The notes beneath the pieces are model-generated. The model searched no databases. It worked only from the letters and a program-made list of their open reading frames with translations, and had not been told where the DNA came from. 64,000 bases of DNA from an uncultured Gammaproteobacteria bacterium (GTDB taxonomy: Bacteria; Patescibacteriota; Microgenomatia; Levybacterales; UBA12049). Below, in pieces: positions 2,829 through 34,106 of the stretch. A program made the position numbers and the translations under genes. How positions within the stretch are numbered: the first letter of the stretch is position 1; the number at the start of each line of letters is the position of its first letter. The DNA lies in assembly GCA_964523705.1 (NCBI GenBank), contig CAZFYA010000003.1, positions 432 through 64,431 on the forward strand, in the 5' to 3' direction.

Positions 2829-3194
2829 TGGTGGAGATGTCGAGTAGTGAACTCGAGTCCAAGAAATTTATTAAAAAACATTTACAAGCTTATTCGATTT
2901 TTAAGCTTCGCTTTATTCTTATCCAATCGAAAGGAAAAAATAAAGTTAAGATTAAATAAGTTCGATAAGGATATAATCAACTTCCTTATTATTTTCCAAA
3001 CTGTGTTTATGCCTATAAAATCCCGTTTGGAAAAGATTAAATAGACAGGCAATCTACTTAAGCGTATGCGTAAGCAAATTGACCACTAGAATATTGATTT
3101 CTAGCATTTATATTTTGACTAGGATTTAGCGACATTTAGTCATTGTCGGCTTGCAGTTTTTTAAAGTGCTTTCCTGTCGATGCAATGCATCCCC
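2829..3194 (-). ncRNA. ssrA: tmRNA (ssrA)
   Basis: The minus strand begins GGGGAUGCAUUGCAUCGACAGG and ends ...GGACUCGAGUUCACUACUCGACAUCUCCACCA. The acceptor GGGGAUG/CAUCUCC carries the G3:U70 Ala identity pair. Candidate tag reading frame is GCT AGA AAT CAA TAT TCT AGT GGT CAA TTT GCT TAC GCA TAC GCT TAA, giving (A)RNQYSSGQFAYAYA. It lies next to smpB. The plus-strand ORFs 2847-3044 and 3151-3435 in the track are spurious. Confidence 0.8.
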
Positions 3195-23759: not shown

Positions 23760-26237
23760 ATGAAACTAGACGGTATCAGAGAAAAAGTTTTTCTAGACAG
23801 ATATTCATTAAAAAATAAAAAAGGAGCTCCTGTGGAGAAAACCCCCAATGAGATGTGGAAAAGAGTAGCAAAAGGAGTTGTAAAGGCTGAAAAAGCAAAT
23901 GTTAGAGCAAAGTGGCAAAAAAAATTCTATGATGCAATGCAGGATTTTAAATTTGTTCCGGGAGGAAGAATTTTAGCCGGAGCAGGAACAGGATATCAGG
24001 TAACTTTTTATAACTGTTTTGTTTTACCAAGCCCCAAAGACTCAAGAGATGGAATTTTAGAGAACTTAAAACATATGACTGAAATAATGGCAAGAGGAGG
24101 AGGAGCAGGAATCAATCTTTCATCACTTAGGCCAAGAGGGGCAAGGGTTAAGAAGGTAAATGGATTTTCTTCAGGTCCGATTAATTGGGCAGAGCTTTAT
24201 TCAATAACCACAAAAGACATTATTCAACAAGGTGGCTCAAGAAGAGGAGCATTAATGCTTATGCTTTGGGACTGGCATCCTAATATTGAAGAATTTATTA
24301 CCGTAAAGCAGGATTTAACTAAAATTACCGGAGCAAACCTTTCTGTTTGCGTATCCGATAAATTTATGGAGGCAGTTAGAAAAAATAGCAACTGGGACTT
24401 AGTTTTTCCAGATATTAATGATAAAGACTATGATGAAAAATGGGATGGAAGCCTTGAAAACTGGAAAGCCTTAAAGAAAAAAGTAAAAGTATATAAAACT
24501 GTTAAAGCAAGACATCTTTGGGATTTAATTTGTGAAGCCGCATGGAAATCTGCTGAGCCAGGAGTTGTTTTTATGGAAAGATATAACAAATGGTATAACA
24601 ACTGGTATTGGAATAGAGTAAATTGTACAAATCCATGTGGAGAAGAAGGCTTACCAGCTTGGGGAGTTTGTAATTTAAGCTCTTTGAATTTATCGGCCTT
24701 TGTAAAAGGGTACAGTGTAGACAAACCAGGGGAAATGGATTATAAATCCCTTGCTGAACATGCAAAGATTGGAGTTAGGCTTCAAGATAATGTAATAGAC
24801 CTTGATTCCTATGCTTTTCCTCAAATAAGAGAAATGCAGTTAAACGGAGAAAGAAGAATTGGCCTTGGAACAATGGGTCTTGGAGATGCATTAATAAAAA
24901 TGCATCTTCGCTACGGATCTAGCGATTCACTTAAGGTAATTGAGAAGATATTTAAAACAATTAGAGACGCAGCATATGAAGCATCAGCAGAGCTTGCCAA
25001 AGAAAAGGGTGCATTTCCAAAGTTTAATTCCTCAAAATATTTAAAAGGCTACTTTATTAAAAAACTACCAAAAGAAATAAGAGCAAAAATTAAAAAATAT
25101 GGAATTAGAAACTCGCTTCTTCTTCAAGAAGCACCAACCGGCTCAACCAGTCTTTTAGCAGGGGTTTCATCGGGAATTGAACCAATTTATGAATTTGAAT
25201 TTACAAGAAAAGATAGACTTGGAGAACACAAAATTTATCATCATTTATATGAAGAATGGAAAAACACTCATCCTTCGACAAGCTCAGGACAGGTCCAAGA
25301 AAAACCAGACTATTTTGTTTCAGCAAATGACTTAACACCTGAAGATCATGTAAAAGTTCAGGGTAAAATTCAAGAATATGTTGATGCTTCTATTTCAAAA
25401 ACAGTTAATGCACCAAAAGCCCATACAATTGATGATGTTAAAAGACTTTACATGCTGGCGTATAAAGAAGGTTGCAAAGGAATTGCCTATATGAGAGAAG
25501 GCTCAAGGGAAGGGGTTTTAGTTAGACAAGAAGATAAAAAAGAAGAAGTAAAAAAAGAAGCTACACAACCAATTGATACAAAACGCCCAATTACCCCAAG
25601 GCCGTATATGGTAGAAGGAGTAACATATCAAACCGAAACTCCGGTTGGAAAAACCTTTATTACCATCAATCATGATGATAATAAAGAACCATTTGAAATT
25701 TTTATTACAGTTGGGAAAAGTGGTTCAGACGTTGCTGCGATGGCAGATGCATTAGGTAGAATGTTGTCTTTGTTTTTAAGATCACGTGGACATTTATCTT
25801 CAAGGGAGAGAATAAAACAAATAATAGCACAGCTTATTGGAATTGGTGGTGCAAAAAGCGTTGGTTTTGGTGATAAAAGAGTAAGATCCTTGCCAGATGC
25901 GGTTGCTAAGGTTTTGGCTAAGCACTTTTCTTTTAGAGTAAATGGAATTGTTGAAGATAATCCAAAAGCTGCAAATGGACAAGTTAAAGCAAATGGAGTT
26001 ACTAATGGAATAACCAATGGGCATGTAAAGCCTTCACCTGTTTTAGAACCTCAAAAAGAAGAAGAAAAAGAGGTAGTTATGCTTAAGCAGTTAACAATTG
26101 AAAATCAAGAAGGACACTTAGCAACAGAAGGATTAGCAACAGGGCTTTTTGATATTTGTCCTGATTGTGGAAGTGGAAGCTTAGCTTATGAAGAAGGCTG
26201 TAGGAAATGCTACAGCTGTGGATATTCAGAATGTTAG
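23760..26237 (+). CDS. nrdJ: Class II (adenosylcobalamin-dependent) ribonucleotide reductase
   Basis: 825 aa with RNR catalytic-core motifs (NPCGE, ...). C-terminal Cys cluster CPDCGSG...CRKCYSCGYSEC. Confidence 0.85.
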   Translation: MKLDGIREKVFLDRYSLKNKKGAPVEKTPNEMWKRVAKGVVKAEKANVRAKWQKKFYDAMQDFKFVPGGRILAGAGTGYQVTFYNCFVLPSPKDSRDGILENLKHMTEIMARGGGAGINLSSLRPRGARVKKVNGFSSGPINWAELYSITTKDIIQQGGSRRGALMLMLWDWHPNIEEFITVKQDLTKITGANLSVCVSDKFMEAVRKNSNWDLVFPDINDKDYDEKWDGSLENWKALKKKVKVYKTVKARHLWDLICEAAWKSAEPGVVFMERYNKWYNNWYWNRVNCTNPCGEEGLPAWGVCNLSSLNLSAFVKGYSVDKPGEMDYKSLAEHAKIGVRLQDNVIDLDSYAFPQIREMQLNGERRIGLGTMGLGDALIKMHLRYGSSDSLKVIEKIFKTIRDAAYEASAELAKEKGAFPKFNSSKYLKGYFIKKLPKEIRAKIKKYGIRNSLLLQEAPTGSTSLLAGVSSGIEPIYEFEFTRKDRLGEHKIYHHLYEEWKNTHPSTSSGQVQEKPDYFVSANDLTPEDHVKVQGKIQEYVDASISKTVNAPKAHTIDDVKRLYMLAYKEGCKGIAYMREGSREGVLVRQEDKKEEVKKEATQPIDTKRPITPRPYMVEGVTYQTETPVGKTFITINHDDNKEPFEIFITVGKSGSDVAAMADALGRMLSLFLRSRGHLSSRERIKQIIAQLIGIGGAKSVGFGDKRVRSLPDAVAKVLAKHFSFRVNGIVEDNPKAANGQVKANGVTNGITNGHVKPSPVLEPQKEEEKEVVMLKQLTIENQEGHLATEGLATGLFDICPDCGSGSLAYEEGCRKCYSCGYSEC

Positions 26238-26307
26238 GTGTATAGGTAATTGCCGTGTAATTCGGCGACAGTGCCGCTACTGTTAAAGTCAGAAAACTAT
26301 ACACACC
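26237..26307 (+). promoter_or_regulatory. Structured RNA element with cobalamin-riboswitch-like core motifs (candidate minimal B12 aptamer)
   Basis: Outer helix GGTGTATAG...CTATACACACC encloses GTGTAATTCGGCGACAGTGCCGCTACTGT (compare GGUGAAAAUCCGG...CCCGCCACUGU) and AAGTCAGAAAAC (compare the B12 box AAGUCAGGAGAC). It is followed by a second hairpin CCTCTATATATTAAGTAGAGG. Confidence 0.35.
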
Positions 26308-30802: not shown

Positions 30803-30876
30803 GCTCCTGTAGCTCAGTGGCAGAGCGCTACTCTTATAAAGTAGATGTCCTTGGTTCGAATCCAAGCAGGAGCACA
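30803..30876 (+). tRNA. tRNA-Ile with anticodon TAT (UAU); no CCA encoded
   Basis: GCTCCTG-TA-GCTC-AGTGGC-AGAGC-G-CTACT-CTTATAA-AGTAG-ATGTC-CTTGG-TTCGAAT-CCAAG-CAGGAGC-A. Anticodon loop CTTATAA puts TAT at positions 34-36. Confidence 0.8.
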
Positions 30877-32987: not shown

Positions 32988-32999
32988 ATTAAAATAGAT

Positions 33000-33290
33000 A
33001 AAAATCTTTGTTGCGGGGCTAGGAGTTGCGCCTAGCCTATGAGATTATGCAATCTGTTTCTCTAATTACTTAGAGTGTCGGACTATATCATCATCCATTT
33101 TCTGGATGCTTGGCGTGTAGTCTCTACGGGATCTTTTTTTAGACTTCCCTCGGTATTGTCCTATCGAAATAGGATTTTACCGATATAGCCAAGTTCTCTT
33201 CTCATTATTGCTAATAAAAAGGGCCCATTTGAGCCTCATGTGCACTGTACACTACCCCGCACGTGAAAGCATTATAACAATTTAACTTTA
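33000..33290 (-). ncRNA. Group I intron-like ribozyme core (P3-P9), on the strand opposite to the adjacent LAGLIDADG ORF
   Basis: Minus-strand assignments, given as plus coordinates. P3 is CUUGGC (33188-33193) paired with GCCAAG (33109-33114). P4 is UCGGUA/UACCGA. P5 is UCCUAU/AUAGGA capped by a UUCG loop. P6 is GGGA...UCCC. P7 is AGACUA (complement of 33118-33123) paired with UAGUC (complement of 33081-33087). P8 is CAUCCA/UGGAUG. P9 is CUCUAA-GUAA-UUAGAG with a GNRA loop. P9.2 is GGCUAGG/CCUAGCC. The S-element-like string GAUAUAGUCC is present. Confidence 0.6.
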
Positions 33291-34052
33291 ATGGGTCAAC
33301 GTTTGACAAAAATAGAACAGGTAGCTATAGTATTAGTACTAATATATTTTGGCAGTTTGATTATGGCAAAATTTGAGCTTAGATTACGGGCACGAGAAAT
33401 GAGAAAAAAAGGAATTAGCGTCAAGGAAATTGCTAACACGTTGGGAATTTCGAAAAGCACAGCTAGTATTTGGGTTAGAGATGTAGTTCTGTCAATTAGT
33501 CAACTAGAGAAATTAAGACAAAAAAGCCTTGATGGAGCAGAGCGTGGGCGTTTAAAAAGTGCTTTAATGCAAAAAAATAGATGGATTAAAAAATTAGAAG
33601 CACATAAGCAAGCAGGAATAAAAACGATTGGTGATTTGGACAAGAGAGAATTTTTTATCGCTGGGCTTGCATTGTATTGGGCAGAGGGAAGTAAAAAAAG
33701 CAGATCTGTAGAATTTTGCAACTCAGATCCCAAGATGATCGTATTTTTAATACGTTGGCTTACGGAATGTTTTTCGATAGGGAAAGAAGAGCTTAGGTGT
33801 AACGTTGGAATAAATGAAATTCACAGGAAAAGAGAGAAAATTATTAATGAATACTGGTCAAATATTACAGGTATTCCATTAAGTCAATTTAGGAAAATAA
33901 TGTATAAAAAAGTTATAAATAAAAAAATCTATGAAAATTACGATAATTATTTTGGAACTCTTGCTGTCAGAGTAATGCAACCATCGAGATTTTATGCTAA
34001 AATCTTAGGGCTAATAGAAGGATTAGCATTTGCCAGCGTAGCTCAGGGGTAG
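33291..34052 (+). CDS. HTH plus single-motif LAGLIDADG homing endonuclease-like protein
   Basis: N-terminal HTH (ISVKEIANTLGISKSTASIWVRDV). LAGLIDADG motif FFIAGLALYWAEGSKK. A possible degenerate second motif GLIEGLAF lies at the extreme C-terminus. The stop codon lies inside the D loop of the downstream tRNA-Met. The real start may be the Met at 33363. Confidence 0.6.
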   Translation: MGQRLTKIEQVAIVLVLIYFGSLIMAKFELRLRAREMRKKGISVKEIANTLGISKSTASIWVRDVVLSISQLEKLRQKSLDGAERGRLKSALMQKNRWIKKLEAHKQAGIKTIGDLDKREFFIAGLALYWAEGSKKSRSVEFCNSDPKMIVFLIRWLTECFSIGKEELRCNVGINEIHRKREKIINEYWSNITGIPLSQFRKIMYKKVINKKIYENYDNYFGTLAVRVMQPSRFYAKILGLIEGLAFASVAQG

Positions 34053-34106
34053 AGCGGACGTTTCATAAGCGTCATGTCGCAGGTTCGAATCCTGCCGTTG
34101 GTACTA
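34032..34106 (+). tRNA. tRNA-Met (anticodon CAT), elongator-type; no CCA encoded
   Basis: GCCAGCG-TA-GCTC-AGGGGTA-GAGC-G-GACGT-TTCATAA-GCGTC-ATGTC-GCAGG-TTCGAAT-CCTGC-CGTTGGT-A. The acceptor stem has two G-U pairs and there is no GGG/CCC run in the anticodon stem, so it is not an initiator. It could alternatively be tRNA-Ile(LAU). Confidence 0.75.

Follow-up and report, generated by a model that had tools for sequence, protein, structure and literature searches.

A compact group I intron in a probable initiator tRNA(CAU) gene of a Microgenomatia genome

Described tRNA introns and the present locus

The site between positions 33 and 34 of tRNA-fMet is a classical one for group I introns, occupied in Cyanobacteria and in other phyla (Nakagawa et al. 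2026, mSystems, PMC13011429). In the same work, which surveyed 95 complete genomes, introns designated 'Met (CAU) 33/34' are listed for two complete Patescibacteria genomes, GCA_001029755.1 (Microgenomatia) and GCA_013426185.1 (Table 1 of PMC13011429), and one of the listed Met(CAU) intron genes was miscalled Leu(CAA) by ARAGORN. Furthermore, tRNA introns have been described as frequent in metagenomic assemblies of unnamed phyla (Williams 2020, bioRxiv 10.1101/2020.01.27.920355). In this work we analysed a 64,000-nt stretch of contig CAZFYA010000003.1 (assembly GCA_964523705.1, Microgenomatia, Levybacterales), referred to below as the window. Its minus strand from 33261 to 33011 very probably carries a tRNA(CAU) gene, most likely that of the initiator tRNA-fMet, which is interrupted between U33 and C34 by a 182-nt, IC3-like group I intron without an open reading frame (ORF).

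This type of element is already described in Patescibacteria, and the window intron is an ordinary further example of it. With the 33/34 introns reported from that phylum (PMC13011429) it shares phylum, class, anticodon and site, the miscall as Leu(CAA), and the lack of an endonuclease gene inside the intron. The classical tRNA-fMet intron lies at the same site, between a 5′ exon ending in GGCU and a 3′ exon beginning with CAUAA, and likewise has a U-G wobble in P1 and a terminal G. Its core is also related to that of the window intron, as two Bacteroidota examples from the part of Table S5 that was compared scored 42–50 bits against a hidden Markov model (HMM) of the window family. However, the tRNA-fMet introns of Cyanobacteria and Bacteroidota have a length of about 300 nt or more, and PD-(D/E)XK genes occur in some of them, whereas the window intron has only 182 nt and no ORF.

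The split tRNA(CAU) gene and its ribozyme core

The Rfam group I intron model RF00028 matched the minus strand of the window from 33241 to 33059 over its full length (1–253), scoring 81.6 bits where the gathering threshold is 50, with an E-value of 3.3e-19. This was the sole non-tRNA Rfam hit in the region, and the same model matched four related loci at the same position with 68.6–81.3 bits. The initial annotation of this DNA had proposed a group I core on the minus strand, and this proposal is confirmed. The helices it had named, P3, P4, P5 with its UUCG loop, P6, P7, P8 and P9 with its GUAA loop, are all present as the Rfam alignment has them, and folding the excised intron to minimum free energy gave the same helices (−54.8 kcal/mol, z = −6.4; none of 200 shuffles was as good). 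P3 (CUUGGC/GCCAAG, 33193–33188 with 33114–33109) encloses the segment in which P4 (33183–33178 with 33155–33150), the simple hairpin P5 (33174–33159), P6 (33149–33128) and the 5′ strand of P7 (GACUA/UAGUC; 33122–33118) are found, the whole running from 33193 to 33109. The block 33108–33060 then consists of the P8 hairpin (33108–33092), J8/7, the 3′ strand of P7 (UAGUC, 33085–33081) and the P9 hairpin (33075–33060). The core string GAUAUAGUCC, which the initial annotation had also pointed out, is present at 33089–33080 where the Rfam alignment places it. On the 5′ side, P2 (33221–33198) is a hairpin with a GCAA tetraloop of the GNRA type.

For comparison, use was made of the protein encoded next to the split gene, which has more than 431 relatives. 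A scan of one genome per GTDB species found relatives of it in 286 genomes, and 80 of these loci were taken further (numbers such as L011 denote related loci). An nhmmer profile of tRNA plus intron, run on the 80 loci, found 40 complete intron-bearing genes, together with one into which an ORF is inserted (L065) and a truncated one (L062). The intron was seen in 42 of the 80 species genomes carrying the neighbour protein. The 42 distinct intron-bearing sequences, to which the counts on tRNA and intron homologues below refer, have introns of 176–266 nt.

In these homologues P3 was 97% paired and P9 98% paired, both with compensatory changes in five of six pairs, and P4 was 98.8% paired, also with compensatory changes. 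The scores of P2, P5 and P8 were lower (74–79%), because their variable lengths align poorly in MAFFT; nevertheless, compensatory changes were seen at all ten pairs of P2. Over the whole intron structure, 83% of the cells were paired, compared with 34–53% in controls with slid partners, and double changes were found in 326 cells of the intron alignment against 113 in shuffles. The initial annotation had named a lack of covariation in P3 and P7 as one point that would speak against its proposal. P3 covaries, and P7 is 99.5% paired but nearly invariant. Judged by this comparison of sequences, the minus strand carries a genuine and intact group I intron.

The exons, which had been described as not obvious, are the two halves of the split tRNA. 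Our ARAGORN search with introns allowed found a gene of 251 nt including the intron (33261–33011), initiator-like and with no encoded CCA. The 5′ exon has 30 nt (33261–33232; UGCGGGG UA GUGUACAGUGCAC A UGAGG CU, the last base being U33). The intron (33231–33050) starts with CAAAUGGGCC and ends with GAUUG, its terminal G being at 33050. The 3′ exon of 39 nt (33049–33011; CAUAA UCUCA UAGG CUAGG CGCAACU CCUAG CCCCGCA A) holds the anticodon CAU and the T arm. Joined, the exons form a 69-nt cloverleaf with the anticodon loop CUCAUAA. Across the intron, 97.4% of the cells of this cloverleaf were paired in the homologues, and 12 of the 21 pairs showed compensatory changes, including three of the five anticodon-stem pairs that span the intron. 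Two further hairpins that had been assigned to the 3′ part of the intron were found to involve exon sequence: 'P9.2' (GGCUAGG/CCUAGCC) corresponds to the T arm in the 3′ exon (33035–33019), and 'P9.1' (AGAUU/AAUCU) spans the 3′ splice site, with bases of the anticodon stem pairing to the end of the intron.

With introns allowed, ARAGORN did not find the split tRNA at its default threshold; it appeared only at -ps90 or -ps85. With the relaxed threshold the split cloverleaf was detected in the window and in four relatives, but it was named Leu(CAA), because the program places the intron by the archaeal/eukaryal convention. We therefore replaced this placement by boundaries set from group I rules and intron-less alleles. 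A U before the 5′ splice site and a G as the last intron base give the exon and intron coordinates, the 33/34 site and the anticodon CAU. In L011, L079, L027, L036 and L044, intron-less alleles occupy the same genomic spot, where GAGGCU runs unbroken into CAUAAUCUCA, and for intron-less orthologues located there ARAGORN reports tRNA-Met(cat) without any change to its defaults. A comparison of orthologous loci had been advised by the initial annotation, and these contiguous alleles fix the insertion site. The terminal intron base was G in all 42 homologues, whereas the first base was C, U or A; this variability fixes the 5′ junction after GGCU.

At 33228–33222 the intron has a putative internal guide sequence, AUGGGCC, which is complementary to the ligated junction GGCU/CAU: its GGCC forms P1 with the exon GGCU, and its AUG forms P10 with the CAU anticodon in the 3′ exon. 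Counted on majority alignment columns of the 42 sequences, P1 was 99.4% paired and P10 93.7%, and the U-G wobble of the 5′ splice site was present in all 42. Since the exon side is invariant, this pattern is one of conservation and not of covariation.

These elements suggest the following route of splicing. The tRNA gene would be transcribed from its own sigma-70-type promoter, for which a candidate, TTGACC-17-TATAAT with a TG extension, was found at 33299–33271. This site has 11 of 12 consensus matches and ends 9 nt before tRNA position 1, and TGnTATAAT stands at an equal distance upstream of the tRNA in L001 and L003. The intron would fold into P1–P10. The guide would first pair with the end of the 5′ exon, GGCU, where the U-G wobble marks the point of cleavage, and then, once the first step is complete, with the anticodon CAU of the 3′ exon. 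Two transesterifications, the first with exogenous guanosine and the second with the terminal G (33050), would give the 69-nt tRNA, and CCA would be added afterwards.

The Azoarcus tRNA-Ile intron is a compact IC3 tRNA intron, and the window intron is like such introns in several respects: a length of about 180–210 nt, a simple P5, no P7.1 or P7.2, GNRA tetraloops on P2 and P9 alike, and the common core strings UAUAUCGGUGAA, CAAUACCGAGG, CCGUAGAGACUACACG and GAUAUAGUCC. The host tRNA and the site are different (33/34 here, 34/35 or 36/37 there). The same likeness was seen with the tRNA-Arg(UCU) 34/35 introns of Bacteroidota and Bacillota in the compared part of Table S5. Judged by architecture and by scores against labelled introns, the intron may belong to subgroup IC3, and its IC3-like traits also include the 3′ strand of P3 abutting P8. 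In the compared part of Table S5, seven IC3-labelled introns scored 37–62 bits against the intron-family HMM, whereas the IB2 and IA1 examples scored 18 bits. The best outside match there was a Bacteroidota tRNA-Arg(UCU) intron with 61.8 bits.

Some points weigh against this account of the intron. P1, P10 and P7 are nearly invariant and thus offer no evidence from covariation. Resemblance of the family to IC3-labelled introns, against which it scores best, is at odds with the published statement that no Patescibacteria tRNA intron was classed as IC (PMC13011429). Finally, what stands behind the account is the covariance-model hit, the exon boundaries read from intron-less alleles, and the conservation and covariation of ribozyme and tRNA, all of them properties of the sequences; from these we infer that the intron splices itself.

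The loops of the host tRNA are atypical: the D loop (region 33248–33244) reads ACAGU, without GG, and the T loop (33030–33024) reads CGCAACU. In the homologues, a D loop with GG was found together with N-Y55-C56 in the T loop in 19 cases, and one with AG together with N-G55-C56 in 22, which makes 41 of 41. The pattern resembles an exchange of the elbow contact, with A18:G55 in place of G18:U55, and the window gene has the A18/G55 form. Covariation as perfect as this points to selection on the folded tRNA, and the odd loops would not then be signs of decay.

Before turning to the alternatives for which these loops matter, three variants of the locus should be described. In L065 (598–1101, minus strand; contig JBBTTM010000086.1), the 33/34 intron of the tRNA(CAU) carries a 168-aa LAGLIDADG ORF with the motif LAWLAGIIDGEGCF. 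The ORF lies in the loop of P6 and is encoded by the tRNA strand. As a positive control, it matches PF14528 (E 1.9e-6) and PF00961 (E 5.4e-6) above their cut-offs. This relative offers the same-strand, in-loop endonuclease arrangement that the initial annotation regarded as the normal one, and with it a possible route for mobility. Its enzyme is of the LAGLIDADG type, unlike the PD-(D/E)XK type of classical tRNA-fMet introns. In earlier work, tRNA-fMet introns were described as carrying PD-(D/E)XK genes and the tRNA-Asn introns of Patescibacteria as carrying HNH genes, and LAGLIDADG genes were reported in neither (Nakagawa et al., PMC13011429). In L062 (2177–2366, plus strand; Amesbacteria GW2011_GWA1_47_20), about 120 nt of intron remain in the initiator-like tRNA gene. 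P6 is missing altogether, as are the 5′ strand of P7 and the 3′ halves of P3, P4 and P5; either the intron is dead or the assembly is at fault. In L004 (3180–3620), and also in L005 and L006, an 81-aa GIY-YIG ORF (PF01541) was found between the tRNA 3′ end and the HAD gene, outside the intron and on the same strand as the tRNA.

The initial annotation had considered that the intron might be a decaying remnant of a mobile intron, and also that it might lie in the 5′ untranslated region (UTR) or near the start codon of the HAD gene (32987–32166, minus strand), where splicing would build the ribosome-binding site and start codon. A decaying remnant or tRNA pseudogene would accord with the odd D and T loops, with the relaxed threshold that ARAGORN needs, and with the truncation in L062, where P4–P6 and half of P3 and of P7 are gone. 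However, the complete catalytic core, the terminal G and the U-G wobble are kept throughout the 42 homologues, the ribozyme and tRNA helices show compensatory changes, and the loops covary perfectly. The UTR reading can point to a HAD start just 23 nt from the tRNA 3′ end. However, the intron does not abut that start, as had been assumed: it ends at 33050, and the 39-nt exon plus those 23 nt lie between it and the ATG. In addition, both exons are tRNA halves, with the pairing and compensatory changes given above, and they join to a tRNA and not to a leader of an mRNA; in L004–L006 another gene even lies between tRNA and HAD. We regard both readings as highly improbable, and the comparative data already contradict them.

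Most intron-bearing tRNA genes point away from the protein gene, upstream of which they lie at a distance of 85–115 nt. The conserved order of the context is XerC-like recombinase, DivIC, HAD, gap, the neighbour protein of 229 aa, MurI and MurD. Intron-less alleles are nested among close intron-bearing relatives, which would indicate sporadic loss or gain.

Identity of the interrupted tRNA

On comparison of its sequence with that of its homologues, the interrupted tRNA is likely to be the initiator, and we infer initiator function for it. Its acceptor stem, N-GCGGGG/CCCCGC-A with the discriminator A, fits CGCGGGG...CCCCGCAA, the initiator pattern of E. coli. In the homologues, the anticodon was always CAU, and position 1:72 was mismatched (C×A or A×A) in 22 of 42 and U-A in the other 20, but in none G-C. 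In Parcubacteria loci, textbook-looking initiators stand beside the same neighbour protein in the equivalent place, for example in L043. No second initiator-like acceptor stem was found within the 64-kb window.

It is rather unlikely, but should be considered, that the same intron and tRNA belong to a gene for an elongator tRNA-Met or for tRNA-Ile2. Several features of the window gene speak for this, and they are at the same time the points that weigh against an initiator. The window copy has a U1-A72 pair and not a mismatch. The three G-C pairs that mark initiators (29-31:39-41) are replaced by A29-U41, G30-C40 and G31-U39, which sets this host tRNA apart from that of the classical tRNA-fMet intron. 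G31-U39 was found in 41 of the 42 homologues, and G30, G31, C32 and U33 also serve as the P1 strand. The initiator mark A11:U24 (purine 11:pyrimidine 24) is not present either; 41 of 42 have U11:A24, as in elongators. Lastly, Nakagawa et al. label their Patescibacteria 33/34 examples 'Met' and not 'fMet' (PMC13011429). In the present family, by contrast, synteny favours the initiator, as do the acceptor stem and the mismatch at 1:72.

The other genes of the locus speak against an elongator or tRNA-Ile2, as do the acceptor stem and the absence of G-C at 1:72. Every locus examined also has a tRNA-Met of the elongator type, in which the acceptor stem is closed and the loops are canonical. A tRNA-Ile(UAU) gene lies near the split gene at 30803–30875, and one is also near the locus in L001, L048 and L052. 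This suggests that AUA is probably read without a lysidine-modified tRNA-Ile2(CAU), for which there would be no need. Together with the textbook initiators of Parcubacteria, these data lead us to prefer the initiator.

The neighbouring 229-aa protein and the flanking tRNA pair

The protein gene next to the split tRNA lies outside the intron on the plus strand (33363–34052) and encodes 229 aa with an N-terminal helix-turn-helix (HTH) and a C-terminal domain of probable LAGLIDADG fold. Its start had been placed at 33291; it is most likely the ATG at 33363, because the homologues have 227–234 aa and a promoter-like site, TTGACA-17-TATAGT, is found at 33303–33331 (plus strand; 11 of 12 consensus matches). 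This site is conserved in L001 and stands back to back with the tRNA promoter. An operator palindrome formed by the back-to-back −35 boxes (GGTCAAcgtTTGACA) was considered and dropped, as the spacing is not conserved in L001 or L003. The ORF starts on the other strand, 102 nt past the 5′ end of the tRNA and behind two back-to-back promoters, and not in the periphery of the intron as an antisense endonuclease gene, which was another suggestion of the initial annotation.

The same annotation had called this a LAGLIDADG gene, and of this only a fold-level resemblance could be retained. Pfam, NCBIfam and PHROGs match only the N-terminal HTH. The Pfam LAGLIDADG families PF00961, PF03161 and PF14528 gave no match to the ORF, its C-terminal 139 aa or 26 family members at E <= 10, and PDB searches by sequence and profile returned HTH noise only. 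Foldseek found no hit in the PDB at E <= 0.001 and only HTH matches among viral structures. The helix REFFIAGLALYWAEG closes with an invariant E-G. We conclude that a LAGLIDADG fold is probable for this protein, while the name 'LAGLIDADG homing endonuclease' is not shown for it. WhiA (DUF199), a transcription factor with degenerate LAGLIDADG domains and an HTH, may be compared with this ORF. However, WhiA has two such domains and a C-terminal HTH, whereas the 229-aa protein has one LAGLIDADG-like domain and an N-terminal HTH. The two share no sequence similarity, and the 229-aa protein keeps the invariant E-G at the motif position, its ORF always adjoining tRNA(CAU) genes.

In Patescibacteria the family is found in 286 GTDB species genomes, almost always between an upstream initiator-like tRNA(CAU), on either strand and with or without an intron, and a downstream elongator tRNA-Met. 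In Parcubacteria, tRNA-fMet, ORF, tRNA-Met and tRNA-Asp follow each other in this order, all on one strand. Free-standing endonucleases of phages are known from 'collaborative homing', and LAGLIDADG proteins can act as maturases. It could therefore be asked whether the 229-aa protein is tied to the intron in function, either by cutting intron-less tRNA alleles or by assisting splicing. The distance of about 100 nt to the intron-bearing gene in most Microgenomates loci, the invariant E-G that closes the motif helix and the general capacity of LAGLIDADG proteins for maturase activity would fit with this. However, the protein is kept beside intron-less alleles in at least 20 species genomes, among them L011, L079 and L027, where it has 37–60% identity and the junction is identical to the spliced product, and also across Parcubacteria loci in which no intron was found. 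In these genomes, an endonuclease active on such a target would cleave the DNA that encodes it, and a maturase would find no substrate. In addition, hhalign found no relation between the family and the genuine intron-encoded LAGLIDADG of L065. A homing or maturase role tied to the intron is therefore improbable, since the gene lies outside intron and tRNA and persists where the intron is missing. Across loci, the 229-aa gene and the elongator tRNA-Met are kept as neighbours of the split tRNA, and neither is a component of the intron.

The elongator-type tRNA-Met(CAU) lies at 34032–34104 on the plus strand (ARAGORN; Rfam tRNA 65.3 bits) and has an acceptor stem closed by G1-U72 and canonical D and T loops. 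As the initial annotation stated, the 3′ end of the ORF overlaps it: the last six codons and the stop TAG (34050–34052) lie inside the tRNA, the stop 21 nt within it at the end of the D loop. Conservation of the protein ends at GLIEGL, just before the tRNA starts, and the variable tails are translated tRNA. In most Microgenomates relatives the ORF runs into tRNA-Met without a stop and ends 9–79 nt inside it, whereas in more distant relatives it stops 3–40 nt before the tRNA. Were ORF and tRNA-Met co-transcribed, cleavage by RNase P would leave a non-stop mRNA. Elsewhere in the window, a tmRNA gene was found at 2829–3194 and an AdoCbl-II cobalamin riboswitch at 26228–26307 (plus strand; Rfam, 50.8 bits against a gathering score of 36.5).

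A speculative possibility is that the 229-aa protein is a domesticated relative of homing endonucleases that acts on the flanking pair of Met-tRNAs. It may regulate transcription of the initiator or the elongator tRNA, or its expression may be coupled to the processing of tRNA-Met, from RNase P through non-stop mRNA to tmRNA; in the same proposal, all initiation in more than half of the species would be ribozyme-dependent if the split gene is the sole copy. With its link to tRNA(CAU) genes in 286 species genomes, this HTH/LAGLIDADG-fold family, so far uncharacterised, merits separate study. The comparative set, with 42 distinct introns, intron-less alleles, one LAGLIDADG-bearing intron and one truncated, could seed better models of bacterial tRNA introns. 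Standard tRNA finders miss the split gene or name it Leu(CAA), so that metagenome-assembled genomes of Microgenomates can seem to be without an initiator tRNA. Should the split gene be the only one for an initiator, all protein synthesis in these bacteria with reduced genomes would depend on the self-splicing of a ribozyme, which may be a control point at the RNA level.

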